This document shows positions 34,362 through 53,492 of a DNA stretch of 55,536 nucleotides, piece by piece (within the stretch, counting starts at the first letter, position 1; each line of letters opens with the position of its first letter). The DNA lies in IMG/VR virus record IMGVR_UViG_3300020045_005976, positions 1-55,536 of that record; one strand, given 5' to 3'. Below the pieces are notes generated by a model. It ran no database searches and was not told the DNA's origin. It was given only the letters and a program-made list of their open reading frames with translations. This DNA comes from a virus (taxonomy: Duplodnaviria > Caudoviricetes). Made by a program: the position numbers and the translations under genes.

Positions 34362-34916
34362 ATGAAATTTATCACTTCTCTCTTTGCGGTTGCCATTCTG
34401 TTTTTGGCGACTTATACGCAGGCGGCAACTACTGTTGGCGTCCTGCCATCTACCGCTGTCGCTGTAATTAACAGCACGTCTACGACAAATCAGCTCGTCA
34501 ACTTCCCGGCTTGGCCTGTGGTGGTTGCCGGGGCGACTTCCGTGACTAACTTCACGACCATTGACATCACTGGATACAATGATGTTGCCTTGAAGTTTGT
34601 TTGCCAGACGACCAACACGACCAGCACGTCAAACGTGGTTTGGACCATCTATCGCGATGTTCCTAATCGATTCCCGACCAATGCGGTCGGCACGGGCGTT
34701 AATTGCGCCATCCTTGGCACCGTGACCAACATCCTGAATGGTGTTGCGCCCGTAACAGCTATTGCCAGCTATAACGGCGTTCCTCGCACCACGGCTAGCA
34801 CATACCAAAGCACTGATGCTGGCATCGCTGGTATCTCCACGCTATATATTGGCTATGTGACCGTCCCCGGACTGTCAGGCATCACCAATTATCAAGTCTA
34901 CGTTAGTAAGAAATAG
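34362..34916 (+). CDS. Signal-peptide protein at the capsid-decoration position
   Basis: MKFITSLFAVAILFLATYTQA/ATT Sec-type leader; beta-rich, Thr/Asn-rich. Confidence 0.7.
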   Translation: MKFITSLFAVAILFLATYTQAATTVGVLPSTAVAVINSTSTTNQLVNFPAWPVVVAGATSVTNFTTIDITGYNDVALKFVCQTTNTTSTSNVVWTIYRDVPNRFPTNAVGTGVNCAILGTVTNILNGVAPVTAIASYNGVPRTTASTYQSTDAGIAGISTLYIGYVTVPGLSGITNYQVYVSKK

Positions 34917-34978
34917 CCTGCCGTTACTGACGGCGTGCGCCTCAATCTGCTTTGAAGCGTGCGCCGTCCCTCTGTTTT

Positions 34979-35632
34979 ATGGAAACAAAATGGGTCACAT
35001 TAAAGGCGAGTGATTTGGCGCGAGTTATCGCCGTCGAAGTTCTTGGCAAGTCAAATGAGAACATTGATGCCGATAGCGTTGCGAATAAATTAGCCAATGC
35101 CGAAAGCCGGGCGGCATATGACCCGACGCTTGACGACCGGGCAACCCAGCAGATTTCAATGGCGGTTGCTGAATGTCGCGGGGCAATTCAAATGGGCGAC
35201 AAGTCGGCGCTTTCATTGGAAGTTGGCGCGGTGCCACCTGAATGCGTGGTTCACGTTCTTTACCTTGCGGCATATCGGCTGGTTAACAGTTCGCCGAATC
35301 TGCAAATGGTGATTCTTTCGGACAAAGGCGCGTATTCGCCGCTGACCGACAATTTCAAATCGGCGCAGAAGTATATTGAATTGTTGTCCAACGGCAAGCC
35401 GACCGTTCCACCAAGCGAGCCAACTGGCCGCGACTATTTGACGGCGATTAATACGCCGTGGTTCTGTAATTCGCCATCGCCGTTTCCGCCCTACAATCCA
35501 GATTTGCCAATCAATCCGCCGGTTGCTGGTGTGCGCTTTGGCGGATCAACCCGTGCCGACTTGAGCACGTTTGACTCTATTTTTATGTCGCCCGCTCCGC
35601 TGGGGTGGCCGTCAAGCATTGGCCAGCCATGA
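34979..35632 (+). CDS. Head-tail adaptor (Mu gp36/DUF1320-like)
   Basis: Synteny; ISMAVAECRG..VPPEC..LAAYRL..FKSAQKYIELLSNGK pattern. Confidence 0.65.
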   Translation: METKWVTLKASDLARVIAVEVLGKSNENIDADSVANKLANAESRAAYDPTLDDRATQQISMAVAECRGAIQMGDKSALSLEVGAVPPECVVHVLYLAAYRLVNSSPNLQMVILSDKGAYSPLTDNFKSAQKYIELLSNGKPTVPPSEPTGRDYLTAINTPWFCNSPSPFPPYNPDLPINPPVAGVRFGGSTRADLSTFDSIFMSPAPLGWPSSIGQP

Positions 35633-36642
35633 TAACTCTACAGGAAAGAATTTCCGCGCGAGCTTTGGCGATGCGGGCTTTGAATATTATCAAGGCGACG
35701 CACATTAAGGAATACACCAAAGTCGTTGACGGAAAAACTGTAACTGTAAAACAGCACGAAGACAGCCGAGACAAATGGACCGGCGGCGCTGGCGGAATTC
35801 ACCTAAAGCGAACCGGAGAAGGAAAAGAGGGCAAATGGGTGACGCACGACGATAAAGAGATACCGGAACACGCCAAGAAATTGGTCATTCCGCCAGCTTG
35901 GAAGAATGTTCGCGTCGCCCCCGATGAAAGCCATGATTTGCAGGCCATTGGCGAGGACTCAAAGAATCGCGTTCAAAGAATTTATTCGGAAGAGGCGACT
36001 CAGAAAGCGGCAGACCAAAAGTTTTCGCGCAATTCTGAGTTACTTAAAAAGCAGGGATATATTTTCAAGCAGAACGAAGCCAATCGGAAAAGCGAGAATC
36101 TAAAAACGCGCGAAGCTGCCGATTGCATGAAGTTGATTCAAGAAACCGGAATCAGGCCGGGTAGCGACGCGGATACAGGCGCGAAGAAAAAAGCTTATGG
36201 CGCAACCACGCTTGAAGCGCGCCACATTGTCATCAGTTCCAGTGGTTCCGTTAGCCTGCAATTTGTTGGCAAAAAAGGCGTTGAACTAAACATTCCAGTG
36301 CATGACGAAAGCACGATTGAAATGCTGAAAGAAAAGAAAGAAAGGTTTAGCGACGATGAAAGAATTTTCTCAACATCTGACGCAATGCTGCGGGAATATT
36401 CGCACACACTGGACGGCGGAAGCTTCAAGCCGAAAGATTTTCGCACACTGAAAGGCACAAATACCGCCGTCGAAGAAATCGAAAAGAATCCAAAGCCAGC
36501 GAAGACGATGGATGAATATAAAAAGCGAGTAATGGAAATTGCCAAAAAGGTTTCGCAAGCGTTAGGTAATACTCCAATAATCGCATTGCAATCATATATT
36601 AATCCTTTTGTTTTTGATGTCATTAAACCAATTTCCGAATGA
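35629..36642 (+). CDS. DNA topoisomerase IB (bacterial/poxvirus type)
   Basis: IPPAWKNV, LQAIGED, GIRPG, YGATTL, FVGKKG, KDFRT, LGNTP and QSYINP; full catalytic set. Confidence 0.93.
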   Translation: MITLQERISARALAMRALNIIKATHIKEYTKVVDGKTVTVKQHEDSRDKWTGGAGGIHLKRTGEGKEGKWVTHDDKEIPEHAKKLVIPPAWKNVRVAPDESHDLQAIGEDSKNRVQRIYSEEATQKAADQKFSRNSELLKKQGYIFKQNEANRKSENLKTREAADCMKLIQETGIRPGSDADTGAKKKAYGATTLEARHIVISSSGSVSLQFVGKKGVELNIPVHDESTIEMLKEKKERFSDDERIFSTSDAMLREYSHTLDGGSFKPKDFRTLKGTNTAVEEIEKNPKPAKTMDEYKKRVMEIAKKVSQALGNTPIIALQSYINPFVFDVIKPISE

Positions 36643-37478
36643 GTCTTGAACCTAAAATAGTTGATTGGCGAAAGAGTGCCAAGGATACGGACTTCGACCC
36701 GGACGACACCGAGATGGCCGAAACTCCGCGCGATGTTATTTTGGCGCTTGGATTTGATCCAAAGGAATTGAGCGAAGAAAGCGTAAAGGCAAGCGACGCC
36801 GGTGCAGATATTCAAGACGCAATTCGGCGCGAGTCCGAAGAATTGTTTCAATCCGCCATTGACGAGTTTCTGATTCACGCAAAGGCTGATGCGCTGGCGA
36901 AGAAGCGGAAAAAGCGGCAGGAGATGGACGAAATTTTCCTTTTGCTTATGACTGATTCGGCGAGCGAATCATACAAGATTGTTTATACAAAGCTTGAAAA
37001 GTTCAACGAGGCCAAGAATCCAATGGCGGCAAAAGAAGTTGCGAAAGCCGCAGAAGTCTATGCCGGAGCGCGCGAGAAGTTTTTAAAGAATTTCCCAGAT
37101 GAAGTGGCCGACAAGTTGGCCAAGGTTAAAGACGACGCAGAGCTGGCCGACAAGACGCCAGCCGAAGTCCGAAAAGAGGTTAGCAAGGCGGCTGGCGCTA
37201 TTAGCGAAGGCCAAGGAAAAGTTGTCGCCGAAACTGAAGCGCAGGTTTGCTATGGATCGGCAGTCATTGCTGCCATAAAGCGAGCCGGAAAGACGCACAA
37301 GTTTTGGCAGACCATGCAAGACGATCATGTTCGCCATTCGCATGAGCAATGTCAGCTTCAAGGGACGATTCCGGTTGGCAACATGTTCCATAATTTGATG
37401 CTTTATCCTGGCGATCCAAACGGCGCTCCAGAGGAAATTATCAATTGCCGGTGCATCCTTTTTGGCGTCACAAAATGA
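36639..37478 (+). CDS. MuF/SPP1 gp7-like head morphogenesis protein with acidic N-terminal peptide
   Basis: VAETE, KFWQTMQDDHVRHSH and YPGDP..PEEIINCRC motifs. Confidence 0.88.
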   Translation: MSLEPKIVDWRKSAKDTDFDPDDTEMAETPRDVILALGFDPKELSEESVKASDAGADIQDAIRRESEELFQSAIDEFLIHAKADALAKKRKKRQEMDEIFLLLMTDSASESYKIVYTKLEKFNEAKNPMAAKEVAKAAEVYAGAREKFLKNFPDEVADKLAKVKDDAELADKTPAEVRKEVSKAAGAISEGQGKVVAETEAQVCYGSAVIAAIKRAGKTHKFWQTMQDDHVRHSHEQCQLQGTIPVGNMFHNLMLYPGDPNGAPEEIINCRCILFGVTK

Positions 37479-37927
37479 CCATAACCGCCACAGTTGATAC
37501 GTCAAAGTTTGAGTCTGATTTAGCTGAAAAGATGAATCACGCCAAGGTTTTTACGCTTGAAGCTATGCGTGACAGGCTTTACGAAATTGTGATTGGCAAC
37601 TTTGGTGCGTTTCCGGTGGATAGGCCGGATTGGGAAACGAATTATCTTTCGATGCAATACGCAAAGAGGGTTGGCAGAAATGTGGCAACAATGGTTGAAA
37701 GCGGATCCATGCGAGACGCGGTAATGAAAGGCGGAACTGGCGGAAATTCAACGTCGGTATCGCTCTCAAATTCATCCGTCCCGTATGCCACGGTTCATCA
37801 TTTTGGGAATGGAAACATGCCGAGACGGCCAGTTTTTCCAATTGAAGAAGACGGAACAATTCGCTCATTCACGCAAATGTCCGTAATTAACGCAGCCAAC
37901 CAAGCTTTCGCGGAGGCAATGCAATGA
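37475..37927 (+). CDS. Mu gpG-like virion morphogenesis protein
   Basis: ESGSMRDAV and VPYATVHHFG..NMPRRPVF motifs. Confidence 0.75.
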   Translation: MTITATVDTSKFESDLAEKMNHAKVFTLEAMRDRLYEIVIGNFGAFPVDRPDWETNYLSMQYAKRVGRNVATMVESGSMRDAVMKGGTGGNSTSVSLSNSSVPYATVHHFGNGNMPRRPVFPIEEDGTIRSFTQMSVINAANQAFAEAMQ

Positions 37928-38478
37928 ATATTTCAGGCAATGGAAATCCAAGTCCAACCGTGCGCGAAGATGCGCTCGCTATCAAGTCGCAGCTTGACAC
38001 CTACGCACTTCCGCGCGGCGGCAAGGTTAAAATCATGGCGAACATGCGCCATTTATGGGAAGAGGTCCTGGACACGACTTCAAGCGAGACGCCAAGAATT
38101 TTGATTTGTTGGCAAGGCGAGACTGCGCGCGGCGAATACGCGGGTGGTGTTCGCACCAACATGCACCGCGTGGACCGCAATTGGCAAGTGGTGGTAATGC
38201 GCGGCCACGGGTTCAAAAGCCTTGTCACTGAATCCATCGGCCAACCGGGCACGCCGGGATATTACGAGGATTTTTACGACGCCGTGGAGACAATCCGCGA
38301 CGGCATCCGCGTTATGTCCAACATCACCGCCGAGGATTTGGTTGATTACAAAGGCATCAAGCCGCTGCCCAATGTCGGCCCGTCGCCATCCGCCAACGTG
38401 TTCCTTGACGCTTTCCAGATTGAATTTTCCACCGCCGCCGACATTCCGCAAATCCTTTCAAATGGCACCACCGGATAA
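37924..38478 (+). CDS. Putative tail terminator
   Basis: Synteny and size. Confidence 0.5.
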   Translation: MNISGNGNPSPTVREDALAIKSQLDTYALPRGGKVKIMANMRHLWEEVLDTTSSETPRILICWQGETARGEYAGGVRTNMHRVDRNWQVVVMRGHGFKSLVTESIGQPGTPGYYEDFYDAVETIRDGIRVMSNITAEDLVDYKGIKPLPNVGPSPSANVFLDAFQIEFSTAADIPQILSNGTTG

Positions 38479-38543
38479 AAACGGCAAAAACCAGTTGCAA
38501 TAAAAACCACCAAACTCAAAGTTGAGATAGAAAGAAAAAAATC

Positions 38544-38936
38544 ATGGCCACTACATCAAACGCAGTTCAAATTACCGCCAGCCTGACATCTTCGCTGCTG
38601 ACCAATCCGCCAATTGGGCAGTCCGGCTCTATGTCGCTGTCTTTTACGGATGGCGATTCGGCATCTGACACTTATGTCAATGTCACAACCGCAACCGCCT
38701 TGAATGCCGACATTGTGGGCGGTGGTTTTGCGTTAATCTCCAATCCTGCATTAATTAGCGGTGTAGCTAATACCGTTGACGTTCTGTTGAAGATTTCAAC
38801 CACTGCCATCGGAACGCTTAAGCCGGGTGCGTTGGCGCTGATTCCGCTTGATTCTGGAACGGTTATTACAGGGACGGCATCGTCCGGGGCAGTAAACATC
38901 GGCGTAACAGTTATCGAGTGCGACCCGAACGCCTAA
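38544..38936 (+). CDS. Putative structural protein
   Basis: Beta-rich ORF in the neck/tail module. Confidence 0.55.
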   Translation: MATTSNAVQITASLTSSLLTNPPIGQSGSMSLSFTDGDSASDTYVNVTTATALNADIVGGGFALISNPALISGVANTVDVLLKISTTAIGTLKPGALALIPLDSGTVITGTASSGAVNIGVTVIECDPNA

Positions 38937-38965
38937 CAATTAACACTTAAAGAAAGACTAAAATT

Positions 38966-39415
38966 ATGTGGCCAACAACTGGAGCAACCGGAAACGCAAA
39001 CGTAGCAACTGGGCAATATATCGCCAGCGGAACGGCGTCAAAGATTCTGTGGGGAACTCATGCAATGGCCGGACTTAGTGCTATCGCTGGTTTTTTGACG
39101 ATCACTAAAATCTCACAAAAGCCGATCATTGCTTTTGACGTGAACCTTGAAAACGGAAACGGCCACGTCGCCGGAAAGGTTTTAGGAATTGACGGTTTCA
39201 AGATGGAAATCGAAGTCCGTGACGACACAGATCAGCCAACAAACCTTTTAACGGTCGGCAATCGCATTACGGTTTATGACTACGCCGGACAAGCTCCGGG
39301 CGGAAACAGGAACGCAAGTTATTCCGCTATCATATCTGATTGTGGATGGGACGCCGCGCCAAAGACGCCAGCCGGAAGAACTTTGACCGTTGAGAAATTC
39401 TTGTTAATCGCATGA
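38966..39415 (+). CDS. Putative tail tube protein
   Basis: Position before the chaperone and tape measure; 149 aa. Confidence 0.55.
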   Translation: MWPTTGATGNANVATGQYIASGTASKILWGTHAMAGLSAIAGFLTITKISQKPIIAFDVNLENGNGHVAGKVLGIDGFKMEIEVRDDTDQPTNLLTVGNRITVYDYAGQAPGGNRNASYSAIISDCGWDAAPKTPAGRTLTVEKFLLIA

Positions 39416-39924
39416 ACGAAGCAATTCCTCCGCATATAATTGCGGCAATGGCCAGGCAGGACGCCGAACAAGCGAAAGAAGATTCGGCAGGCATTCAGGC
39501 GGCAACAGCAACCTTGCCCGGCCCCATGCTGGCGATGTTTTCGCCGTCGCCAAGTATCTCGGTCGGTCCGTATTCCGTCCGCCGCTTTGTTGATCGGGAT
39601 TTTATTCTGCTTTCCGCGCTTGACCACCCACTAAAGAGCGTGTCAGAAATTGAATCTTACCCGTTTCACCCAACCGGCGAACACGCTTGGCAGTTATGCT
39701 GGCTGTTAACGCGAGACGTTAAAGTGGCAAAGCTGGCGTTTAAAAACGGCGTTGCTGCGGTCAAAGAATTGGCATCCGACGAGTTCGGCGACTATTCGTT
39801 TCATGAAATTGCCGCTATCACCAAAGCCATATTGGAACAAATCCGCATTTACGGCTCGGCCCGACTTGATTACAAACCAGCCTCAACCGGCGCGGAGGGT
39901 GAGAATAGCAGCCCCCCGCAATAG
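39412..39924 (+). CDS. Tail assembly chaperone (gpG-like)
   Basis: Position; ends at a slippery C-run. Confidence 0.65.
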   Translation: MNEAIPPHIIAAMARQDAEQAKEDSAGIQAATATLPGPMLAMFSPSPSISVGPYSVRRFVDRDFILLSALDHPLKSVSEIESYPFHPTGEHAWQLCWLLTRDVKVAKLAFKNGVAAVKELASDEFGDYSFHEIAAITKAILEQIRIYGSARLDYKPASTGAEGENSSPPQ

Positions 39925-41373: not shown

Positions 41374-41550
41374 ATGAAGCTGATTCAAAATATCACGACG
41401 CCTTGGATTGGTGCGATGGAAAAACTTAAAGCAATTAGGCCGCGTTCCGATTTTGATTATGATGGAAAACGGTTTGTGGTATTGTCCGCCAAAATATGCA
41501 GGCAGGATGATTCGGCTGTTTTAACAACGGTTTCAGAACAAATTCAATGA
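41374..41550 (+). CDS. Small hypothetical protein (58 aa)
   Basis: Fills the gap; ATGA-coupled to the next gene. Confidence 0.45.
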   Translation: MKLIQNITTPWIGAMEKLKAIRPRSDFDYDGKRFVVLSAKICRQDDSAVLTTVSEQIQ

Positions 41551-42485
41551 AAGCACTTTCTCTAACAGTGTCAGGTGATCCAATCGCGTCAAGGTTGTAT
41601 CCGGCAACTGTAACGCCGAGCCTGATTTCAATGCGGCAAGTGACGATTCACAACTTCCCTGCATCAAACCCTAACTTTTCGCGAGCTATTCGTGCGACGG
41701 ATGAATACGTCATCATCCAGCGGGGAGCTGCGCAGGTTGCGTTTTCCATTCCTGATTTAATCACGCTGGCACTGACTCAGGAAACTGGGTTAACTTGGAC
41801 GCCTCCCGTTCCACTTGGTCAACCATCATCCGCCACCGCAGCAGGGACGGCCTACGCCACGCAAGCGTTAACCAGCGATAACACAAATGTTTCCGATGCT
41901 GAAACGGTAACTATTGGTTCAACTGTTTACAGGTTCAAATCAACAATGGATTCAGCTTACGACGTTCAAATCGGAACTGATGCCGATTCGTCATTACTGA
42001 ATTTAGCAAAAGCAATTAACGCCAGCGGAACGGCGGCAAATTATTACACAGGAACTCTGATTCACCCAACTGTTTCCGCGTCCGAAACAATCGCGGCTCA
42101 TGTTTTGACCGCAACCGCAAAGGCAAAAGGAGTCGCCGGGAATTCGATTGCCACCACTGAAACCAGCGCGCATTTGGCTTGGGGTAACACCACGCTTTTA
42201 GGTGGCACCGGAACGGCGGTTGCGTCTTTCATTTTTCCTGCTGGAAGTGAGTATGCATTGACTTATGCTTGGTACGAGTCAGCCGACGATGGCGCTACAT
42301 GGGGTTCCGCCTTAACGACTACGGGCGTTTATAATGTCGCCACACCGGGAACGTTAACAATCACCAATCCGTCATTTACGATGAATGGAAACTATTACAA
42401 GTGCATTGTGACTGACGACGCCGGAAGTTACGGATTAACCAATGGGTCAATCACTTCTGATTTGGCGATTCTAACCGTTGCTTAA
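41547..42485 (+). CDS. Tail-associated protein with Ig-like elements
   Basis: YAWYES..TLTIT..NGNYYKCIVT Ig-like signature; Thr/Ala-rich. Confidence 0.6.
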   Translation: MKALSLTVSGDPIASRLYPATVTPSLISMRQVTIHNFPASNPNFSRAIRATDEYVIIQRGAAQVAFSIPDLITLALTQETGLTWTPPVPLGQPSSATAAGTAYATQALTSDNTNVSDAETVTIGSTVYRFKSTMDSAYDVQIGTDADSSLLNLAKAINASGTAANYYTGTLIHPTVSASETIAAHVLTATAKAKGVAGNSIATTETSAHLAWGNTTLLGGTGTAVASFIFPAGSEYALTYAWYESADDGATWGSALTTTGVYNVATPGTLTITNPSFTMNGNYYKCIVTDDAGSYGLTNGSITSDLAILTVA

Positions 42486-42486
42486 T

Positions 42487-43791: not shown

Positions 43792-44204
43792 TTTCGTGCG
43801 CACCATCCGCGAAGATTGTATTGCCGACTCCACACGAAGGCTCTCCGCAGCGTGTGGCGCGCGACGCTTCGGACGTGTCGCAACAATGGAAGCAAGTAAG
43901 CAAGGCGCTTGACCAGATTCGCAACTTGCACGCGGTTGTTGAAACGCAATCGCAGACGATTAACAAGATTCGTCGGCGCATTCTTGGCGGCTCTGGCGGG
44001 CAAGCGTCATCATCTCAGTTTCGTGGAGAATACAGCACCGGTGAGTCCTATGCTATTGGCGATATGGTGGTAATTCGCGCGGGCGTAAGTCGCGGCGGTT
44101 ATATTTGCATTCAAGCAAACTCAAACCAAGCTCCGCAATTGCCGGACATTGGAAATCTTTATTGGGTCAGCCTTTCGGGAAACGCCAGCGAATGGATGGT
44201 ATGA
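43788..44204 (+). CDS. Tail protein with CBM5/12-like C-terminus
   Basis: RGEYSTGESYAIGDMV...YIC....YW pattern. Confidence 0.5.
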   Translation: MISCAPSAKIVLPTPHEGSPQRVARDASDVSQQWKQVSKALDQIRNLHAVVETQSQTINKIRRRILGGSGGQASSSQFRGEYSTGESYAIGDMVVIRAGVSRGGYICIQANSNQAPQLPDIGNLYWVSLSGNASEWMV

Positions 44205-46678
44205 GTGTAATAACTCAATCCGAATTAGACGACTTGGCTACAATGGCCAATGGATGCCTGTTGCCGATTGTAAATAATTACATGGCGACAGAAGAAATCA
44301 ACTGGGTTTTAAATACTGGATACGATAAGCACACGGGATATTACTCTTATCCTGGAGTCTACGCTTCTCCGCAACCGCCATATTCATTCAAAATAGCTCC
44401 GTTTGAAAATCTGGTTCCATCCGGTTCTGTTTTTGGAGTTGATGGATCGTTTCAAATCACGATAACCGAAACGGGCGACTATGATGTTTTAATGGGGCAG
44501 AATGAGGGTTTAGACGAAGATGAATTTTCGTTTCGGGTAAACATTCATGGTTATAATTTTTACGTCCGCTGCCTATATATAACGGAGGGCCAAACTGTAA
44601 CCGTTTACGGAACTGCCGGAAATTCGGTGACAGCAATTATATCAAAATCCCAGTCGACGTTTATTAATGAGATTAACCGAATTCGCGGCGACGCAATGGG
44701 CTTGCTAGTTGGCCCAAATGGAACTCCGGTTCCTGGCGGTGAAGTTCTTTACAAGAACAGGGACGCGGTTATGTCTGGGCCGTGGGTTGTCGGGGTGGTG
44801 GACATGGACACGTTTCCGAATAATTATTTCGGCGGAATATTCAGTAGGCTTTCGGGGAGCGTCGTCAACTTGCCTGGATTTCCAATTTTTAGGAATGTCG
44901 AATTTGTTGGACACGACTTGCCGGATGGATTTTTGGTTTATAGCGGTAATGTTGGTTTCCCGTTGATTGACATAACGCCGGGATTTAGATCAACCAGCGA
45001 TGACGAAGGCGAGCTGACGATTTTTATCAGATTTGCCTCTGATTACGGAACTGCCATTTGGGATGATATTGGATTTTCTTGTCCTTCGGCCGATTCCGTA
45101 ACGCTAATTTCAACTGAATCGGTATCTGGCGGATATTGGTTTCATGTTAAAATAGTCATAACGCTTTCTTCCGGTGTCAGCGATCATCCTTTTTCATACG
45201 GAATACCCGATGGCCACATTGGAACAAGCGTTGAAGAGTTTAGGCTTGTCACAAGCTCCATTGGGGACCTTGCTCCATGTAACGCCATCGGATACGCGGA
45301 AGGAAGTAAAATATCATCCATTGACGTTGGTGGGTTTTTAATGGAGCGAATAGACTCAATTGGGGCCGGAGAAAATTTTGCGTGGGGCGTGATAAGTTGG
45401 TGGATTTCGGATCAAACAGTAAAGGGGATTTGGATTGCAAAAACGCTCCCGATTCCGGCCAATAATGTCTTTCTAGATCAAGACATTCCCACTTATATCG
45501 GGAAAGATTATCCCGAGTTTATGGGATACACTGAAGGAAATAAAGTGACAGCTTCAGTCTCCAAAAGCTTTAATGGAACTGGTCCGCGCGCAACATCTAT
45601 GCGCCAGCAATCGCCAATAGAAGCCGAAAATAAAGTCAATCCAATGTCTCCGGGGTTAACCGCAAGGCCAGCAAAGTGGCCAGCGTTTAGGGACACGGAT
45701 TCCTTTACGCCGACTGTTCCATTCTTCCAGTATTCGCGCACTGCTTTATATTGGGACGAAACGCATGAATATGGATTGAACGATTATGCGCGTGCTGATT
45801 TCGGTAGAATATATCGCGGTCGCCACGCTTTAAATACTGGAAATCCGCTACCAGCAAGAGCGCAAGATGACAATACTTATTGGTGGGCTTTGGTTCCAGT
45901 TGACGCAATGGGTGTAGCTGAATGTTTTAGTTATGTTTTAAATGGATCGCCGGGCGTCAAGTCCTTCACTTCCACATTATCGGGCGATCAATCCAACATG
46001 TGGCACGTGAAGCCGATACCTAAAAGCGGGTATTGCATTTTCTCCGTTCGCGCCACGCGCATGGCCGAAAGCATCGGAAACGGAATAAACATTACTCCGA
46101 CTAGCGGGAACGAAATAGTGGTAAAGATTGGCCAAAAAATATCTGGTGTTTTTACGCCGTTTAAGTCAGATGATGGAATTGAAGATTTAACCATAACAAT
46201 TCCCGCAACTGGACGCGACACGGGAGACGTGAAGGTTTTTATTCCGGTCCTCGACGGCAATGAATTAATATGGCAATCAGATTCCCTTGTTGTTTTTGAG
46301 GCTTGTGTAAATTGGCAACCTATTTTCTTCAATGTGGCTTATAGTCGCGGTCAATTCCCAATTGATCCACAGTATGGATTCAATACCGCAGAGCCGGAAA
46401 TTTTCCAACACGCCTTGAGCTTTGAAAACCATTTTGACGTTACTTCTGCTGGATGGGCTTTTCCGCGAAATAGACTTGATGAATTTGGGTCAGGGACTCA
46501 GCCGCCTGCGGTGGTTGTCTACCCTGTGTTCCGAGAGCTTTACGATGACCTTGTGGCGCTTTTAAAGCTGCTTGGCGGCGAGCTGCCGGACGGCAATACC
46601 GCCAGCGGCGCGGGCGGCAGCGGCAGTGCTGGTGACAATATTGGATCAGGGGATGACAACGGCGGCGGAATGCTGTAA
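44201..46678 (+). CDS. Large tail protein
   Basis: Synteny; beta-rich; no signal peptide. Confidence 0.55.
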   Translation: MSVITQSELDDLATMANGCLLPIVNNYMATEEINWVLNTGYDKHTGYYSYPGVYASPQPPYSFKIAPFENLVPSGSVFGVDGSFQITITETGDYDVLMGQNEGLDEDEFSFRVNIHGYNFYVRCLYITEGQTVTVYGTAGNSVTAIISKSQSTFINEINRIRGDAMGLLVGPNGTPVPGGEVLYKNRDAVMSGPWVVGVVDMDTFPNNYFGGIFSRLSGSVVNLPGFPIFRNVEFVGHDLPDGFLVYSGNVGFPLIDITPGFRSTSDDEGELTIFIRFASDYGTAIWDDIGFSCPSADSVTLISTESVSGGYWFHVKIVITLSSGVSDHPFSYGIPDGHIGTSVEEFRLVTSSIGDLAPCNAIGYAEGSKISSIDVGGFLMERIDSIGAGENFAWGVISWWISDQTVKGIWIAKTLPIPANNVFLDQDIPTYIGKDYPEFMGYTEGNKVTASVSKSFNGTGPRATSMRQQSPIEAENKVNPMSPGLTARPAKWPAFRDTDSFTPTVPFFQYSRTALYWDETHEYGLNDYARADFGRIYRGRHALNTGNPLPARAQDDNTYWWALVPVDAMGVAECFSYVLNGSPGVKSFTSTLSGDQSNMWHVKPIPKSGYCIFSVRATRMAESIGNGINITPTSGNEIVVKIGQKISGVFTPFKSDDGIEDLTITIPATGRDTGDVKVFIPVLDGNELIWQSDSLVVFEACVNWQPIFFNVAYSRGQFPIDPQYGFNTAEPEIFQHALSFENHFDVTSAGWAFPRNRLDEFGSGTQPPAVVVYPVFRELYDDLVALLKLLGGELPDGNTASGAGGSGSAGDNIGSGDDNGGGML

Positions 46679-46688
46679 AATAAAACAC

Positions 46689-48713
46689 ATGAAAAAAACA
46701 ATCTTAACACTTTTCCTTTTTGCTTTTGCGGCAAGCGCGCAATTGCAATTCGTTGATTTGACAACAGTCACGACCAACAGACTGACAAACACAGCAAACA
46801 TCGTAATAACTAACGCCCTAATTCCGGGCATTGCGACAAACGTAAGCTTATTTGGGCAATATCAAACATGGAATACAAATAACAGAGTCATCGGCGACAC
46901 GCTTCCAAATGCGTTCACGAAGATAAACGCAAACTCGACTTGGCTTTCTAGCGCGGTCCGCACAAATGGAAATTCCGGCTCTGGATTCATCCCTATTTCA
47001 ACTAATGCTTATCCCGGTTATTTTTGGGGCAGTAATTCGGCGGGTGGAATATCTGCCGCAACAGCGACAAACATTGCGGCATATCAGTCGATGCTGGCTA
47101 CGAATGGACTAACAGCGGGCGGCGGAACTGCATCAAATGCGATTGCAAACAACTACGGTGCAGGCACAAACATTTCATTTTTTGGTAAAACCTTGATGAA
47201 CGATTCTAATTTATATTTTTCAGCAAATTCAGAAGTTCCAAAAACATTGTCCTTATACACTATAACAAATCTTGCAAATGGAATAATCCCAACAATGACA
47301 CCTAGCGACACAAATAAAGCTTTTTGTTCACCGGATCAATATATTAATTTTTATGCATATAAAGCTTTTGATTACTACACTGGATCACCCTGGCAATCAG
47401 GTGGTGGTTCCAATGTTGTTTACATAGGATACAACTTCCCTTCAGTTAAAAAATTAGGTGCGTTAGTTGGATTCTTCTATATAACCGGAGGCGGATCAAC
47501 TGGTGGTGGAACTATATCTGTTCAAGTTGATGGGCCTAATTGGCGTACAGTATATTCAACCCACTTAACAAATGGAGCGCCAGCAGATTCGTTTCCAACT
47601 CTTTTTAATAGTACAAATAACTTAGTCATGTTTGATTCATTAAGCACAACAAATATTAGAGTCTTATTTTCAACTGCAAATTATCCAAGGATTAGTGGCT
47701 GGTTTCAGGTTTATGAAGAAGCTGGAAATTTAATAAAATCAGACACCTCAACATTGAGAATAATATCAACAAATGGAGTTGCTATAAATTCCGCCTACGC
47801 AGGAACAAACATGCTAAGAGTTTCTGGCAACATTGATTCAACTGTTGGATTCTCGATTAACGGAGTTCCAATCAACAATTCATCCAGCGATAATTTAAAT
47901 GGTGTGGTTTCTGGGTATTATTCAAACAATTTTTTCAGCGTAGTTGGAACAAATATGATAAAATCAATTTCTGGATCAATTAACGCTGGCGGTGTGGTTT
48001 CTGGCTATTTAACAAATCAGTCATTCAGCATATTGGGAACAAACGCAATAGCATCAATAGCCTCATCTGCATCATCTGGTAAAATTAAAACCTTATACGG
48101 ATTTGGAACCAATTTGACGCTTTATGGTTTCGCTGATGCCGTGACAACGAATCATGAAACTTTTATCCTGTCCGGCACAACTACTCACAATGGAACATAC
48201 ACCTGGAATGGCGTAAATGTTTTTGTGAATAATACAAATTCATCTCCTTCATATTATATTTATCCTTCCGAGGACGTTAGCGGCGGAGTTTATTACCCAT
48301 ATTATTCAACCAACGGATTCGTTATGAATTACGTGAACGGCGATTATCCAGACGGTCCATTTTATTCCATTGGAAGTGATTTAACTGCGGGTCCGTGGTA
48401 TAGCAGGGCGACTGGATTGGTTGACACAAACGTTATCGCGAGGTGGTATTTGTATACCACAAACCAAGTGCCCGGAACGGCTCAATTTGTAAATGGCGGA
48501 ATAATTGCTGATGGCTCGATTACGTCAACGAATGGCTTTTCGCTCCCGCAACTATCGTCAATCCCTACAAACAAAGTTCCGGTCAGCGATTCGGCGCGCA
48601 CGAATTGGCTACAGATAAACTTGAACGGAAGTGTTTATCTGGTGGCAACAAATTTCGCGTCTGGCGGCTGGCTTTATTCCAAGCAGACGGCATCAATAAC
48701 GACATCGCCGTAA
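46689..48713 (+). CDS. Signal-peptide, TN-rich fibre-like protein with a discoidin (F5/8C)-like segment
   Basis: MKKTILTLFLFAFAASA/QLQ leader; GDTLPNAFTKINAN fibre-like motif; AYKAFD..SPWQS..YIGYNF. Confidence 0.7.
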   Translation: MKKTILTLFLFAFAASAQLQFVDLTTVTTNRLTNTANIVITNALIPGIATNVSLFGQYQTWNTNNRVIGDTLPNAFTKINANSTWLSSAVRTNGNSGSGFIPISTNAYPGYFWGSNSAGGISAATATNIAAYQSMLATNGLTAGGGTASNAIANNYGAGTNISFFGKTLMNDSNLYFSANSEVPKTLSLYTITNLANGIIPTMTPSDTNKAFCSPDQYINFYAYKAFDYYTGSPWQSGGGSNVVYIGYNFPSVKKLGALVGFFYITGGGSTGGGTISVQVDGPNWRTVYSTHLTNGAPADSFPTLFNSTNNLVMFDSLSTTNIRVLFSTANYPRISGWFQVYEEAGNLIKSDTSTLRIISTNGVAINSAYAGTNMLRVSGNIDSTVGFSINGVPINNSSSDNLNGVVSGYYSNNFFSVVGTNMIKSISGSINAGGVVSGYLTNQSFSILGTNAIASIASSASSGKIKTLYGFGTNLTLYGFADAVTTNHETFILSGTTTHNGTYTWNGVNVFVNNTNSSPSYYIYPSEDVSGGVYYPYYSTNGFVMNYVNGDYPDGPFYSIGSDLTAGPWYSRATGLVDTNVIARWYLYTTNQVPGTAQFVNGGIIADGSITSTNGFSLPQLSSIPTNKVPVSDSARTNWLQINLNGSVYLVATNFASGGWLYSKQTASITTSP

Positions 48714-48775
48714 TTCTGGTAAATAATTATTGAATAATTATTTGGGATTGAGTCAATTGTTTTCAGACTTCAAAC

Positions 48776-49585
48776 ATGAATAACAAAACCGAGCTTCTGG
48801 TGGTTGTTTCCGATACCCACTGCGGCTCAGTCGTCGGACTCGCGCCACCGGAAACAAAAACGGAACACGGAAACATGATCGGTTTTGGAGATAATGTTCA
48901 CCAAGAATGGCTATGGGAAAACTGGCTAAAAACAGCCAAGGAAGCAAAGGAAATCATCGGAAAGTCAAAGGCGGCGATGCTGATTAATGGGGATGCAACG
49001 GAAGGTGTTCACCACCGGAACGAGGCTGAAATCGTTGCTGCCGCAATTCTTACGCATACCAAAATGGCAATTGAATGCCTGAAGCCATTTCTTAAAATGT
49101 GCGGAAAGCGGTTTGTGGTGGCGGGTACGGAATGCCATACGCGCGACATGGAGACCTTCCTTGCGAACGAGATTGGCGCAGTTGAATCGAAAGCAAAAGA
49201 CAAGTGGCTTTTTGAAATCAATGGGTGCCTGATTGATGCCGCGCACCACATGACGACAACTAGCCGCGCACACCTTGAAGCTGGGGCTATGTCCATCATG
49301 ATGGGTAATGCGCGCAATAACGCAGTCAGGTCAGGGCATCGGGTGCCAAGTGTTTTTCTCCGCGCGCATCGGCACTGTGGTGGATACTTTTCAGACGGGG
49401 CCGGGTTGTGGGGCGTCACTGGCGCATGGCAATTCCTCACTCGTCACGGCTTCAAGGTCGTCACCGACTCAATCCCCCGCCCGACGGCTTTAATCCTTGA
49501 TTGGCGCGGCAAGAAATCGGGCGCACTGCCTCACGTTCACGAAATTGTTTGCACTCCTCCACAAGAAAGCATCACCAAAATATGA
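48776..49585 (+). CDS. Calcineurin-like metallophosphoesterase
   Basis: VSDTHCG, NGDATEG, GTECH, AHH and RAHRH motifs. Confidence 0.8.
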   Translation: MNNKTELLVVVSDTHCGSVVGLAPPETKTEHGNMIGFGDNVHQEWLWENWLKTAKEAKEIIGKSKAAMLINGDATEGVHHRNEAEIVAAAILTHTKMAIECLKPFLKMCGKRFVVAGTECHTRDMETFLANEIGAVESKAKDKWLFEINGCLIDAAHHMTTTSRAHLEAGAMSIMMGNARNNAVRSGHRVPSVFLRAHRHCGGYFSDGAGLWGVTGAWQFLTRHGFKVVTDSIPRPTALILDWRGKKSGALPHVHEIVCTPPQESITKI

Positions 49586-49815
49586 AAGCATTCAGCGCGG
49601 AAAAAATAACCAAATCGGCAATGAAGGCGTCAGACCTTTTTGAGGTTAGGGAATTCGATGAATCGTCTGAAACCGTTGAAGAAATCGCAGGAAAAATAGG
49701 CGTCAGCATAACCGAGGCTCGCCGCCAATGCTCTAAACTTGTAAAAGACGGAAAGCTTGAAAAGGTTTGGAAAAAAGGAACACGAAATCCGATTGTATCG
49801 TATCGCCCAAAATGA
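49582..49815 (+). CDS. Winged-HTH small protein
   Basis: TVEEIAGKIGVSITEARRQCSKLVKDGKL. Confidence 0.7.
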   Translation: MKAFSAEKITKSAMKASDLFEVREFDESSETVEEIAGKIGVSITEARRQCSKLVKDGKLEKVWKKGTRNPIVSYRPK

Positions 49816-50054
49816 AAACCACCAAAAAGCAGGTTGCCATAACTTCGGATTTAGTGGCGCGAACCATCCAAAACCTTGACGAGTTGGCGGTTGATTATGC
49901 GGTGGTAATCAAAGGTGTTCACACAATTTTCAGCAATGTGGACAGGCCGTTTGCGATGACTATTTTACGCGACGAAATACAGCTTCAGGATAAAATTGAC
50001 GATTTCAAAATTGAAGAAATTGCTGAAAAGCTGTCCGCAATACCAGGCGTCTGA
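49812..50054 (+). CDS. Hypothetical protein
   Basis: ATGA-coupled. Confidence 0.5.
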   Translation: MKTTKKQVAITSDLVARTIQNLDELAVDYAVVIKGVHTIFSNVDRPFAMTILRDEIQLQDKIDDFKIEEIAEKLSAIPGV

Positions 50055-50111
50055 ATTTGTGGCAAAAATGAATTGCAAACCAATCTTTCAAAAGCTTAGT
50101 GTTTTAATCAA

Positions 50112-53100
50112 ATGAGATTTTATCTTGTCTTTGTTTTTGTAGCCGCTCTGCTTTCCGCTGATTTGCAAGGGCAAAGCAATGTTCTTTCGGGAAATGTGGC
50201 GTCGTTCGGTATGGCAGGCAGAACTAATTTAACGATGACTCTGACGATTATCTCGCCAAGGAATCGGAAAATTGGAAATTCGCTTATCAGCAATGACCCA
50301 ATCACGACTCAGACCGACACAAATGGCAATTTCTCATTCTCGAATGTTGTTTTTGGCTACTACGGGCTAACCTCGTCCGATTCAACTGGAAGCCGCTGGC
50401 CGATCATGGTCTTTACCGACACCACGAACGACGTTCAATTGGTAAATCTGGTCAATTGGGCAGTGGCGACGCCGCCGAATAATTGGTCAAACTATTACAA
50501 TATCCCGCAAATAAACTCACTGCTTGAAAGTGTCGCGAGTAGCACAAATACGGGCGTCGCGGGCGTAACGAACGCGGCTAGCACGAATGCAATCGAGCCG
50601 ATTGTGATTAGCTCCACAGTTTTCATTCCAGCACAGACCAACCAAGTAACCGCGCAGAATGTTTTCTCCGCCGTGCCGGGGTTGTTGACCAATTCCTACA
50701 CCGGAGAATATTCCTACCTGCGCATCCAAAGCCCAACGAACGACGCATTTTTATCACTCGGTGCGGGCAGTCAATTGGTCTCCGATAACATCGATCTTCT
50801 ATCGACCGGCGGGCGTCTCACCGTCAGCCCTTATGGCATCTCGCTAGGGTCGGGCTTCTCTAGCGTCGAGATTCTGACCAACGGCACGCTGTCGCTGGCA
50901 GATAAACACGGAGCCGCACTGGTCAGCGATGAGTCAGGGGGATGGTCAATCACCGGGCCGCTGGCCGCAGTGGAGCCAGTCGCCCTCAGTGGATTCCAAA
51001 TTGCCGGTTCGCAAATCTCCTCCCCCATCAGCATCACCAATCTGCCGCCAGGATCGTCAGCAAATGGCCGCAGCCTGAATATTGAATCAGGGCTTTACAA
51101 TTGGAAATTGGCCTTGCAGCGCACCAATGCCGTTCGGCTAATGTTTGTTGGCGACTCAACCGCTACGCTAGTGAATGGCTCTCGGGCGTATGGCGTAAAG
51201 TCTTTTTTCAGTGAGTTTCTGCCGAATGTGCAAAAGCTTTTCCTCTCCGCCGAGAGTTACCCAAAAAGTGCCAACGTTTCATTCGGCGGCGATGACACCA
51301 ACTGGTTCGCGCGCTATCTGCAAATGCCCGCCAACTCGTTCGCGACAAACGACGGATACAACACGCCGCTGATTGGCGCGGACAACATCAAATTTGCTGG
51401 CATCTCATGGCCGCACGGCGGGACGGTGAATGTTTACACTATCAGTTCAACGGTTTCGGTTCCGGTTTTGGTGGCGAGTATCAGCCTGTCCAACAGCATC
51501 GGATCGGTTGGATTCATCACCAACATTCCGGTTTCTGGGACCTATTACACATATGTTCAATCAGTGACGGCAGATGCGGGATACTCAAACAGTGTCTTAT
51601 TCTGCATCGCGGAAAAGTCAGCCACGAAAAACCTGATTGTCTATGATGTTGGCTACGGCGGGCAGGCTGTGACTGATTGGGTGAATGTGAACACGAACAT
51701 ATTCTATCCGGTCTGGGCCGGACTGTCTAATGACGTGGTTATCGTTGCACAAAAGAATTCAACTGGCGTGATGATTGAAACAAACATGGCGGCACTACAG
51801 ACCATGTTCACCAACGCAAGCCCAAAGTCTGACATGGTTTGGTTATCGGCATTTCCGGCGTGGGCACCAGGTTGGGACATTGATGGAATCAATCAGCAGT
51901 TCTACCTAAACGCGCAACGCACCGGCCAAGTTTTTTACGATGACGGAAGTCAATTGCCGCCTACAAACACTATGTTTTCAATGGGATTAATGACAGATGG
52001 CGTTCACCTGACAACCCTTGGTGGCACGCTGACCGGCGGATTGTTGGCGCGCGAATTAAAGCGGGTGGCCTCTGGTTACGATTGGACAACCAAGCCGACG
52101 CTCTCAATCTCTGGCGTGTCGTCTCTGGCTGGCGCAGTCACGGCAAATTCTCAGGTCTCAATCTTAGGGCAGTCGTCCAGTCAGAATTTGATCCTGAATA
52201 ACACAGGCAACGACCAGACGTTGATTGGTTACAACGTGCGCGGGAGCGGTTACAATTCTTGGCGCGTCGGGGCGATAGCTGGCACTGGAAATTCAACCGG
52301 AGCGCATCCAAACTATGGATGGATTCCAATCACGCCCGCTGGTGGATATGCCCTCGGTGGCACGCATTTGGCTTTAGAGCTAACCACGAATGGCAATGCT
52401 ATTTTTGGAGGAGTTGCCACCGGCAACGGCTCCGGCCTGACCAACGTTACGGCTGACTATCTCAGTACATCGTTAACGAACTGGATAGTTGACCAAATCG
52501 CCGAAAGTATCAACGTCTCGTTCTACTCTTCGGCAGTGACGAATTCAACCATCGGAGTAAGCAACTGTGTAATCATGACGACTGTTCCGGCTGTTCTTGC
52601 TCAGACGAACACTTATCTCCTGAACGGACTGGCTAATAACTATTATCTGGCGGCATTCACGACCAACCTTGTCACAGGCGTAACTGCTGGCAATGCCACC
52701 GTTCACAGATTCTATTCTGTCGCGGGAGGAACTTTTACGGACAGGCCAGAGCTGTACATTGTCACGACCAATGGAACGCTGGTTGAACTTGGAGTTGGCG
52801 CATACACCGTTAAAAGTTCAATCGTATTGACTGAGGAAATAGCTTCAATCGTGATAAACATATCCACAAATCCTCCCGGAGGTTGTTATGTTGGGGTTCG
52901 TTGGTTGCTGGCTTCTGAAACTGGAAATCCTACCGTAACAGCAGTTAGTGGTGATGGATACGGATCGCGAATCGAATTGAATGCATCTGAAGGATCAGAG
53001 TCGCTTAACGAGGCGAAGCTTAATGAGAATAACACTTTCACCGGCGTGAATACTTTCACGCAGCCGATTGTTGGGAGCGGGGAATTGATAACGAATGTAA

Positions 53101-53492
53101 ATGTATCAGCGCTGCGGTTTTCCATTGGAACATCTAATACCGTTTCAGTGAACACGAACGCGGCAAATGGGGTAAACTATGGTGGAACTGCATTCGTCAG
53201 CGGAACTGATACGGCTGGAATAATTACAGTTATCACCGGATCAGGAACACAGCCAGCATCGCCAATTCTCTGCACTAACATTTTCAGTTCCGCGTTTAAA
53301 CAGGCGTTATCAAATGCAACTCCAGTTGTTATAATTAACTACATGCAGACAGTTTCTAGTTATTATGCCGGAACCATAAACAGAGCGTATCTATCAAGGG
53401 TTACAACAAATGGATTCTGCATAAGTTGGGTTGGCGGAATAATGGATACATCCTCAACAAATCATTTCAGTTATTTAGTTGTCAGACCATGA
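50112..53492 (+). CDS. Signal-peptide, TN-rich fibre/spike-like protein with an SGNH hydrolase domain
   Basis: MRFYLVFVFVAALLSADLQG leader; VGDST, GYGG and TDGVH blocks; GNGSGLTNV and NNTFTGVNTFT fibre-like motifs. Confidence 0.75.
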   Translation: MRFYLVFVFVAALLSADLQGQSNVLSGNVASFGMAGRTNLTMTLTIISPRNRKIGNSLISNDPITTQTDTNGNFSFSNVVFGYYGLTSSDSTGSRWPIMVFTDTTNDVQLVNLVNWAVATPPNNWSNYYNIPQINSLLESVASSTNTGVAGVTNAASTNAIEPIVISSTVFIPAQTNQVTAQNVFSAVPGLLTNSYTGEYSYLRIQSPTNDAFLSLGAGSQLVSDNIDLLSTGGRLTVSPYGISLGSGFSSVEILTNGTLSLADKHGAALVSDESGGWSITGPLAAVEPVALSGFQIAGSQISSPISITNLPPGSSANGRSLNIESGLYNWKLALQRTNAVRLMFVGDSTATLVNGSRAYGVKSFFSEFLPNVQKLFLSAESYPKSANVSFGGDDTNWFARYLQMPANSFATNDGYNTPLIGADNIKFAGISWPHGGTVNVYTISSTVSVPVLVASISLSNSIGSVGFITNIPVSGTYYTYVQSVTADAGYSNSVLFCIAEKSATKNLIVYDVGYGGQAVTDWVNVNTNIFYPVWAGLSNDVVIVAQKNSTGVMIETNMAALQTMFTNASPKSDMVWLSAFPAWAPGWDIDGINQQFYLNAQRTGQVFYDDGSQLPPTNTMFSMGLMTDGVHLTTLGGTLTGGLLARELKRVASGYDWTTKPTLSISGVSSLAGAVTANSQVSILGQSSSQNLILNNTGNDQTLIGYNVRGSGYNSWRVGAIAGTGNSTGAHPNYGWIPITPAGGYALGGTHLALELTTNGNAIFGGVATGNGSGLTNVTADYLSTSLTNWIVDQIAESINVSFYSSAVTNSTIGVSNCVIMTTVPAVLAQTNTYLLNGLANNYYLAAFTTNLVTGVTAGNATVHRFYSVAGGTFTDRPELYIVTTNGTLVELGVGAYTVKSSIVLTEEIASIVINISTNPPGGCYVGVRWLLASETGNPTVTAVSGDGYGSRIELNASEGSESLNEAKLNENNTFTGVNTFTQPIVGSGELITNVNVSALRFSIGTSNTVSVNTNAANGVNYGGTAFVSGTDTAGIITVITGSGTQPASPILCTNIFSSAFKQALSNATPVVIINYMQTVSSYYAGTINRAYLSRVTTNGFCISWVGGIMDTSSTNHFSYLVVRP

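Follow-up and report, generated by a model that had tools for sequence, protein, structure and literature searches.

Signal-peptide-like leaders on threonine-asparagine-rich proteins in the tail-fibre and capsid-adjacent positions of a tailed phage and its relatives

Three genes of a tailed phage (IMG/VR record IMGVR_UViG_3300020045_005976, analysed over its whole length of 55,536 bases, hereafter the window) encode proteins that begin with Sec-type leaders and are rich in the dipeptide threonine-asparagine (TN), and it is likely from their sequences that all three are exported through the host Sec system. The genes, named here by their first base, are 34362, which follows the putative major capsid gene, and 46689 and 50112, which occupy tail-fibre positions. 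Signal peptides on phage accessory genes are already known; what appears to be new is a conserved leader on all the fibre-slot proteins of several phage lineages, combined with a TN-rich and almost uncharged composition.

Results and discussion

Leaders of the three proteins

Leaders were called by eye and with a crude rule-based script, and then by conservation in homologues. The layout looked for, that of a substrate of Sec and signal peptidase I (SPase I), consisted of a basic n-region, an uncharged h-region of about 7–15 or more residues and small residues at positions -3 and -1. All three proteins showed it, with an uncharged hydrophobic run of 12–16 residues in each; the N-termini read MKFITSLFAVAILFLATYTQA↓ATTV in 34362, MKKTILTLFLFAFAASA↓QLQF in 46689 and MRFYLVFVFVAALLSADLQG↓QSNV in 50112, where the arrow marks the likely cut. 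No second segment of transmembrane grade was found in any of the three. The coordinates and starts had been given correctly in the original prediction, a note made from the sequence alone, which took the proteins to be exported receptor-binding and decoration proteins or, alternatively, agents that remodel the infected-cell surface.

The leader was retained in 8/8 relatives of 34362, in 17/17 N-terminal relatives of 46689 and in the counterparts of 50112 in 2/2 complete sister phages (G001 and G002). Support for export is indirect but strong: leader sequences diverge between homologues, yet none of the homologues studied lacks the hydrophobic stretch. None of the N-terminal homologues started after the hydrophobic leader, and a conserved downstream start bypassing it was found in none of them.

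Threonine-asparagine content, charge and sequons

Two leaderless neighbours of these genes provided context, and the second of them served as an internal control:

32601–34295, plus strand: putative major capsid protein, 564 amino acids (aa), 3' of the portal gene; leaderless; TN 1 against 2.0 expected.
44201–46678, plus strand: tail-tip-like protein (44201), 825 aa, leaderless, last of the tail-gene run; TN 0 against 2.9 expected; 17% charged residues.

The expected TN count was the mean of 5000 composition-preserving shuffles of each protein. Against this measure TN was enriched as predicted, with 6 per 184 aa in 34362 (2.4 expected, a count reached in 1.6% of shuffles), 30 per 674 aa in 46689 (8.3 expected) and 32 per 1126 aa in 50112 (10.5 expected), the last two counts being reached in 0/5000 shuffles; the predicted near-absence of TN from 44201 was also borne out. 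The reverse dipeptide NT was rare (1, 3 and 10 in 34362, 46689 and 50112). Charged residues made up 6.0, 7.6 and 8.9% of the three proteins, respectively, compared with 17–20% of 44201 and the capsid candidate.

The abundance of N-x-S/T sequons in 50112, from which glycosylation by the host envelope machinery had been suggested, stood as a count (21) but not as a signal, since 21.1 are expected; with 3 and 13 sequons against 3.2 and 16.2 expected in 34362 and 46689, there was no enrichment in any of the three, and because the counts equal chance expectation the glycosylation hint is without support. TN occurred in the context hydrophobic-x-T-N-(G/A/Q)-hydrophobic, and is read here as probable strand-turn punctuation in all-beta folds, that is, as a conserved structural motif rather than a modification site.

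The window and 14 further loci were surveyed together, their 230 open reading frames (ORFs) of at least 100 aa being split by the leader script. TN pooled over the 31 leader-positive ORFs amounted to 314 against 112.2 expected (2.8x), compared with 222 against 201.9 (1.1x) over the 199 others, although the script is crude and used a TTG further upstream as the start of the 46689 ORF. Among ORFs with an expectation of at least 1, the median observed/expected (O/E) ratio was 2.79 (n=21) against 0.95 (n=62), with a one-sided Mann-Whitney p of 3e-8 that overstates independence, the loci being related and partly chosen via the family. Median charged content was 9% in the leader-positive ORFs and 23% in the others. 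Lysis-type leader proteins in these loci were not TN-rich, and the only leader-negative ORFs with TN above twice expectation were the L004 and L006 proteins with an internal hydrophobic segment.

TN bias did not appear to be a general trait of exported proteins in the candidate hosts. In crude samples from two metagenome-assembled genomes (MAGs), TN O/E was 1.77 (21 leader-like ORFs) and 1.37 (remaining ORFs) in G006, sampled at 140 ORFs, and 1.44 (20 leader-like ORFs) and 1.65 (remaining ORFs) in G007, sampled at 93, so that the comparison with host secreted proteins proposed in the original prediction gave no general secreted-protein bias. Single secreted enzymes, for example in L046, do have the bias.

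Fibre-like organisation of 46689 and 50112

Both are late-operon genes placed 3' of the tail-tip gene, in the tail-fibre slots originally assigned to them: 46689 starts 10 nucleotides (nt) after the stop of the 825-aa tail-tip-like gene, and 50112 comes after a group of three small genes, with a lysis-like cluster that includes two lipoproteins beyond it. The 44201 protein is itself homologous to a 1201-aa protein upstream of the leader-bearing genes in sister phage G002. The parts of 46689 are as follows:

46689–46739, plus strand: leader, aa 1–17 (MKKTILTLFLFAFAASA), with Q at +1; an equivalent is present in 17/17 N-terminal homologues.
46740–47108, plus strand: conserved N-terminal module, about aa 18–140, with the motif GDTLPNAFTKIN at aa 69–80; from phmmer matches to aa 1–139/165 in 17 proteins and their alignment.
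47355–47693, plus strand: weak discoidin (F5/8 type C)-like stretch, aa 223–335 (Pfam E 0.0018, 18.8 bits, under the 28.2 cut-off).
48477–48713, plus strand: conserved C-terminal module, about aa 597–674, with 18 phmmer matches to that part only and no Pfam match.

A word-based search with 46689 found only the protein itself, and an exhaustive phmmer search found 39 others, of which 17 match aa 1 to about 140 from their own first residues, 18 match only the last 70 or so residues and four match the middle. The 17 N-terminal homologues share a leader of MK, a hydrophobic run and small residues, followed by (L/I)QxVDxTTxTTN. The C-terminal module sits at the extreme C-termini of otherwise different proteins. 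The discoidin match was present in 2/18 members of the family; P0011 carries Laminin_G_3, and one member a YadA-head repeat. An AlphaFold 2 (AF2) monomer model of 46689 from a 40-row alignment had a mean confidence (pLDDT) of 47, too low for the model to be used, and showed aa 2–21 as a helix at low confidence.

The ATG at 46689 agrees with the starts of all 17 homologues. The public gene call (P0007, 695 aa) starts 21 codons upstream (46626–46688) at a GTG inside the preceding gene and is probably too long, because the ATG at 46689 matches all those starts.

The N-module motif of 46689, GDxLPxAFxKxN, also occurs in L011 and L018, at residues ~15–27 of fibre-slot proteins that have no leader and match the Pfam family 'phage tail repeat' (PTR). 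The second fibre-slot gene is divided thus:

50112–50171, plus strand: leader, aa 1–20, likely cut between G20 and Q21, aligned with the sister phages.
50172–50606, plus strand: conserved N-terminal module, about aa 21–165, probably a transthyretin/CarboxypepD_reg-like sandwich, from sister-phage identity and sub-threshold Pfam matches.
51063–52448, plus strand: central module, aa 318–779, 60% identical to a leaderless 724-aa protein.
52449–53492, plus strand: distal part, for which no relatives were found.

The cut of 50112, LQG↓QSN, aligns with APA↓QTN and CRA↓QAN in the sister phages, and its first ~160–190 residues (compared over aa 3–195) are 52% identical in G001 and 35% in G002. CarboxypepD_reg matched this N-module below threshold in 2/3 relatives (E 0.013–0.079), and ESM Atlas gave CarboxypepD_reg and prophage-tail-fibre-N (phage_tail_N) clusters with scores of 0.75–0.82, as leads only. 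The only database homologue, P0009 (724 aa), shares the core at aa 318–779 and has a different, leaderless N-terminus. By eye, the core contains GDS and DG[VI]H motifs that are conserved with P0009 and that we take to resemble those of an SGNH esterase; no Pfam family, SGNH/GDSL models included, matched aa 318–680 at E<=10 and no PDB sequence matched, so that the esterase reading has no support from models.

Above-threshold matches to 34362, 46689 or 50112 were found neither in Pfam, PHROGs or NCBIfam, fibre families of Pfam and PHROGs included, nor in PDB sequence searches. The likeness of 46689 and 50112 to fibres is supported by their conserved N-modules, for which an attachment function would be expected, their swapped distal modules, their position and the motif common to leaderless fibres.

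Two side observations concern the same region. A 269-aa protein encoded between the two fibre-slot genes (48776–49585, plus strand) has a metallophosphoesterase-like start by eye (VVVSDTHCG); it had no Pfam or PHROG match, and the gene is missing between the corresponding genes of G002. In the distal-tail slot, 41547–42485 (plus strand) encodes a leaderless 312-aa protein with 15% Thr, 10.6% charged residues and TN 3 against 2.3 expected, whose C-terminus is Ig-like by eye (…YKCIVTDDAGS…LTV).

The same architecture in other phages and prophage-like modules

The GDxLPxAFxKxN motif was back-translated and used to search viral stretches and genome contigs. It matched 11 viral stretches, seven of which (L009, L010, L012, L013, L014, L016 and L017) have a leader-bearing, TN-rich ORF; L009 and L012 carry the same genes. 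Such ORFs stand directly after large leaderless tail proteins, often several consecutively. G001 has a 1211-aa leaderless tail protein followed by leader proteins of 999 and 151 aa, G002 the 1201-aa protein followed by leader proteins of 742 and 851 aa, and L009 a run of 419, 180 and 1189 aa (TN 17/6.5, 6/1.8 and 37/14.2, observed/expected). Similar runs were present in L013, L014, L016 and L017 and in the prophage-like tail modules L023 and L033, and a leaderless fibre gene after the tail-tip gene was found in none of G001, G002, L009, L013, L014, L016, L017, L023 and L033.

In genome contigs the motif matched 20 stretches, three of which showed the family architecture. Two of these members stand last in the tail modules of MAGs whose labels are Verrucomicrobia subdivision 3 and Verrucomicrobiia; the third (L027, G008) lies in a 5.3-Mb MAG labelled Bifidobacteriaceae. 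This third member has a diderm-type leader, and the bin label looks doubtful. One family-bearing record is classed as a provirus. In L023 (11–1315) and L033 (6047–7132), the gene directly upstream of the tape-measure-like gene encodes a TN-rich protein of 361–434 aa (14/3.8 and 14/4.5) with several N-terminal hydrophobic segments, i.e. a membrane protein in a tail-assembly slot.

The capsid-adjacent protein 34362

The putative capsid gene lies 3' of the portal gene (phrog_113 match, E 5e-54). Its product is 62–76% identical to counterparts in 5 related viral loci, and one of 5 members of the family matched phrog_283 'major head protein' (E 8.5e-6). The window protein itself matched no Pfam or PHROGs family model and had no match among 50,697 cultured-phage records or in genome contigs; the assignment is putative and rests on its position and the single relative's match, and with it the original placing of 34362 directly after the capsid gene holds. 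The features at this site are:

34303–34330, plus strand, between the capsid gene and 34362: 9-bp G+C-rich perfect hairpin without a T-run (fold -22.3 kcal/mol, z -5.3, 0/200 shuffles as stable).
34362–34916, plus strand: 184-aa protein with leader at aa 1–21 (34362–34424), then an all-beta, Thr/Val-rich domain with 6% charged residues; conserved TN motifs; a 9-member family.

One possible role of the hairpin is attenuation or control of mRNA stability, by which expression of the capsid gene would be set against that of the genes downstream.

Five database homologues of 34362 are 47–59% identical to it, and all have a hydrophobic leader of differing sequence. The capsid-related phages L003, L004 and L006 have, next after the capsid gene, one for a 234–244-aa relative in which a conserved hydrophilic N-domain of about 45 residues precedes the hydrophobic segment. 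This segment closes with ...A[NS]A↓AT[VI]IGV, which lines up with QA↓ATTVGV of the window (the L005 protein is the same as that of L004). Of the TN pairs, three are unchanged in all nine sequences, and the closer six have five invariant ones. Like the window, all six records with a capsid relative have a 34362-type gene adjoining the capsid gene.

AF2 modelled the 34362 family as an 8-strand sandwich with a modest pLDDT of 66.5. Foldseek found no match to this model in the PDB at E<=0.001, and a BFVD search returned 48 weak matches to generic jelly-roll, C1q-like or fibre-tip folds (TM-score <0.5), from which nothing more specific than a jelly-roll-like fold is drawn. An ESM score of 0.82 to the Bbp16 cement family is a lead only, and a complex prediction of the capsid candidate with mature 34362 scored 0.00, which gives no verdict and is evidence neither way. 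Position next to the capsid gene and a small beta-sandwich are what a decoration or cement protein would show. Of the original view of exported receptor-binding and decoration proteins, the fibre nature of 46689 and 50112 (position, modules and motif) and export (leader conservation) are supported, and a decoration role for 34362 rests only on position and a generic jelly-roll model.

Two further observations were made around this gene in related phages. L007, the closest relative by the 34362 protein, has a second leader-bearing, TN-rich gene right after its 34362 homologue (12651–13067), encoding 138 aa with GITNS repeats (TN 7/2.1). In the slot from the neck genes to the putative tail-tube gene (window 38544–38936, L003 16338–16802), every relative has a small, very low-charge protein; the L003 version has a leader (…SADA↓QFS) and TN 7/2.0, the window, L004 and L006 versions are leaderless, and no sequence similarity was detected between versions.

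Where the exported proteins might act

The most likely reading, which we hold tentatively, is that the exported proteins attach to virions at lysis. The three genes would be co-transcribed with the late structural genes and their products made alongside the virion parts, the fibre- or lectin-like products being routed through host Sec by cleavable leaders of the SPase I type. After cleavage the proteins would fold in the periplasm, and otherwise complete particles would pick them up when holin, endolysin and spanin break the envelope, part of the virion thus being built in a second compartment. In such a scheme 46689 and 50112 would be side-fibre equivalents whose N-modules dock on a conserved partner and whose distal modules are swappable carbohydrate-binding or enzyme-like parts, and 34362 would be a small, head-associated jelly-roll protein. 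Attachment to virions is favoured because the fibre slot is filled with no leaderless fibre beside it in G000, G001, G002 and L009, and because the mature N-terminus keeps a fibre motif and the N-modules are conserved like attachment modules. T4 fibres can reportedly join particles afterwards in vitro, in complementation work. In a broader form, which is possible but open to considerable doubt, tailed phages that MAG labels link to Verrucomicrobiota would build two-compartment virions, with heads and tails put together in the cytoplasm and all side fibres Sec-routed, folded in the periplasm and added at envelope breach; one lineage would also route a capsid-adjacent jelly-roll protein in this way, processing would often expose Gln, and the TN-rich, almost uncharged composition would mark the periplasm-folded class.

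Several points weigh against attachment at lysis. Tailed-phage virions assemble in the cytoplasm, and we know of no tailed phage with exported fibres, which makes the prior low. Fibres would be diluted at lysis, and receptor binding could instead be the task of the large tail-tip proteins. Export is itself deduced by reading the sequences and from conservation. In-frame TTG codons stand near the predicted cuts, at codon 19 of 46689 and codon 18 of 50112, from which leaderless isoforms might be made, but these codons are not conserved, with Ile or other residues there in relatives. With 2, 1 and 5 cysteines in 34362, 46689 and 50112, a disulfide rationale for export is weak. An hhalign comparison of the 46689 N-module with leaderless fibre N-termini (92% probability, E 6e-7, 24 columns) is partly circular, those fibres having been fetched with the same motif, and the dependence among the surveyed loci described above counts in the same direction. 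The 34362 profile was absent from five other leader-fibre phage records, as it was from the three MAGs holding family members, and the protein evolves faster than the capsid protein (L003 capsid 76% identical, 34362-type protein 31%).

A quite conceivable alternative is that the proteins are exported but never enter the virion and work instead on the envelope of the infected cell itself. As lectin- or esterase-like proteins of the periplasm or surface, they could modify, mask or destroy the receptor glycan, with the effect of superinfection exclusion or of sparing progeny from loss on debris, or could loosen capsule or exopolysaccharide for release; a sensor or exclusion function, in a bitopic or periplasmic protein, would then fall to 34362. 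To our knowledge, the signal-peptide proteins so far characterised from tailed-phage genomes are all of this envelope-acting type, among them lambda Lom and Bor, T5 Llp, HK97 gp15, and T4 Imm and RI. The lectin-type modules of the family (the weak discoidin stretch of 46689 and Laminin_G_3 in P0011) agree with such a role, as do the N-domains of the three longer 34362 relatives, conserved and placed before the membrane segment as in a bitopic protein with a cytoplasmic N-domain, the provirus record and the two members in MAG chromosome contigs. In PMC10367356, signal-peptide proteins of Porphyromonas gingivalis phages that follow the Q-rule (Gln at +1) are read as envelope modifiers, and huge phages are described in bioRxiv 10.64898/2026.10.24.761521 as encoding signal-peptide surface proteins and outer-membrane proteins. 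On the other hand, the window-type proteins are large (674–1189 aa) and multiple, they are the sole occupants of a fibre slot that lacks any leaderless fibre, and they keep the fibre motif at the mature N-terminus. Their late-operon setting, without an integrase match among the 20 window proteins scanned with Pfam (smaller ORFs fell outside the scan), also fits poorly, since late expression leaves a short time for surface remodelling. Receptors in the outer leaflet would need a further secretion step, and searches of the whole proteins and of the conserved C-terminal 69 aa gave no Pfam or NCBIfam match to sorting domains of the type IX secretion system (T9SS), autotransporters or PEP-CTERM; the C-terminus ends ...ITTSP and is non-aromatic.

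It is unlikely that the proteins are ordinary cytoplasmic fibres and decoration proteins whose hydrophobic N-terminus is not used for export, serving instead as a transient membrane tether or a later-removed assembly or trimerisation element, or being bypassed by an internal start. Cytoplasmic assembly is the rule, the TTG codons at positions 19 and 18 offer such internal starts and the protein that shares the 50112 core has no leader. In PMC10367356, phage capsid proteins with signal-peptide calls were judged to carry something else. However, the Sec machinery in a living cell would recognise a leader of MKK, a hydrophobic run and AxA, it is present in every relative with the drift typical of signal peptides while the TTG codons are not conserved, and a TN-rich composition with 6–9% charged residues is sharply unlike that of the leaderless virion proteins of the same phages, which argues for another folding environment. 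That the leaders and TN excess arose by chance, composition or wrong gene starts is very improbable: Thr and Asn are abundant and the public call for 46689 does start 21 codons upstream, but no shuffle reached the TN counts of 46689 and 50112, TN positions are invariant across the 34362 family and the 46689 ATG matches 17 homologue starts.

Comparison with known systems

Siphophage side tail fibres of the lambda Stf type, leaderless as in L011 and L018, occupy the same slot after the tail-tip gene and likewise combine an N-module with swapped distal modules. The leaderless fibres with PTR repeats have the N-terminal GDxLxxAFxKxN motif in common with the window family, and the weak CarboxypepD_reg and phage_tail_N-like signals of the 50112 N-domain are a further likeness to side fibres. 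Known tail fibres have no signal peptide and are assembled in the cytoplasm, whereas here every fibre-slot protein is leader-bearing, TN-rich and low in charge, unlike the leaderless tail proteins of the same phages.

Lom, Bor, Llp and HK97 gp15 are encoded in or beside the structural module with host-type signal peptides, as here. The P. gingivalis phage Q-rule genes (PMC10367356) share this placement and the host-type signal peptide, and in the window family too a Gln is often exposed at the predicted cut. Accessory proteins of these kinds are small and single-domain, and usually lysogeny-expressed cassettes; the window-type proteins differ in being 180–1190 aa long, fibre-homologous and modular, with a position conserved across divergent phages. 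The pIII and pVIII proteins of filamentous phages resemble the proposed scheme, since they enter the virion outside the cytoplasm after cleavage of a Sec leader; those phages, however, extrude without lysis and have no head or tail, whereas the window phage encodes terminase, portal and a capsid candidate, together with a tape-measure-like protein and a lysis-like cluster. Among secreted glycan-active enzymes and adhesins of Verrucomicrobiota, a 1305-aa leader-bearing ORF in L046 with Glyco_hydro_cc, Laminin_G_3 and PATR is similar in its signal peptide, 10% charged residues, TN content (26 against 12.0 expected) and lectin modules, but lies outside a phage tail module and has no detectable sequence homology to the window proteins.

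No title or abstract opening on signal peptides in tail-fibre homologues was found in a literature search whose coverage left out most subscription journals. If attachment to virions is true, it would be categorically new: textbook assembly is wholly cytoplasmic, and here a lineage-wide secretion signal stands on every fibre-slot protein. Such a signal would mean either an undescribed periplasmic branch of virion assembly or a large unrecognised family of fibre-derived proteins exported to work on the host envelope, and either outcome bears on the annotation, expression and engineering of receptor-binding proteins from uncultured phages. The trait is easily detected (a leader, TN O/E >2 and <10% charged residues) and could mark a phage class, and possibly a host range.

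Expression signals and host

A sigma-70 model, the only one used, gave 33 promoter-like sites where shuffles had 25.5±4.7; for terminator-like sites the numbers were 20 in the sequence and 26.5 in shuffles. The genes are therefore regarded as members of the late operon and not as insulated cassettes, given the 10-nt gap before 46689 and the lack of a promoter or terminator excess; a moron reading was rejected on the lack of a flanking excess and on the presence of the genes in all relatives. A Shine-Dalgarno core was found at 6/35 gene starts, and the leaders of the genes are A-rich.

Gln is at +1 in 46689 and 50112 and not in 34362. By eye, it was also found in 11/17 TN-rich leader proteins of the surveyed loci and in 11/17 N-terminal homologues of 46689, and, in a crude sample, in 4/18 and 1/15 leader-like ORFs of Verrucomicrobia-labelled MAGs. 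In Bacteroidetes, most SPase I substrates expose a Gln that is then cyclised, according to PMC5837995, which does not analyse Verrucomicrobia, and Gln cyclisation is reported to stabilise exported proteins (PMC10653852). The lipoprotein-type lysis genes point to a diderm host, and the MAG labels point to Verrucomicrobiota as host of family members; a host in Bacteroidota would likewise agree with the scarcity of Shine-Dalgarno sites and with the Q pattern.

Other features of the window

The window is a complete viral record with direct terminal repeats (exact match length 121 bp) and a completeness estimate of 100%. Pfam identified DnaB, a sliding clamp, a single-stranded DNA-binding protein and the large terminase, and no tRNA genes were found in the window. 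The lysis-like cluster contains two lipoprotein-type genes:

54403–54867, plus strand: lipoprotein-type leader (…LTG↓C), from reading of the sequence; not TN-rich.
55208–55536, plus strand: second lipoprotein-type ORF, spanning the 121-bp terminal repeat; 122 aa if read through.

A type IB topoisomerase is encoded inside the head-morphogenesis block (35605–36642, plus strand; Pfam Topoisom_I E 1e-19, Top1B_N_bact E 1e-9), directly 5' of a Mu-F-like head protein (36639–37478); this is an unusual location for such an enzyme, which could be packaged. In the early region, 7575–8591 (minus strand) encodes a DUF5131 (phage Gp37/Gp68-type) protein (E 1.9e-51), with an AAA_23 gene and a PDDEXK-like (DUF3799) gene as neighbours.

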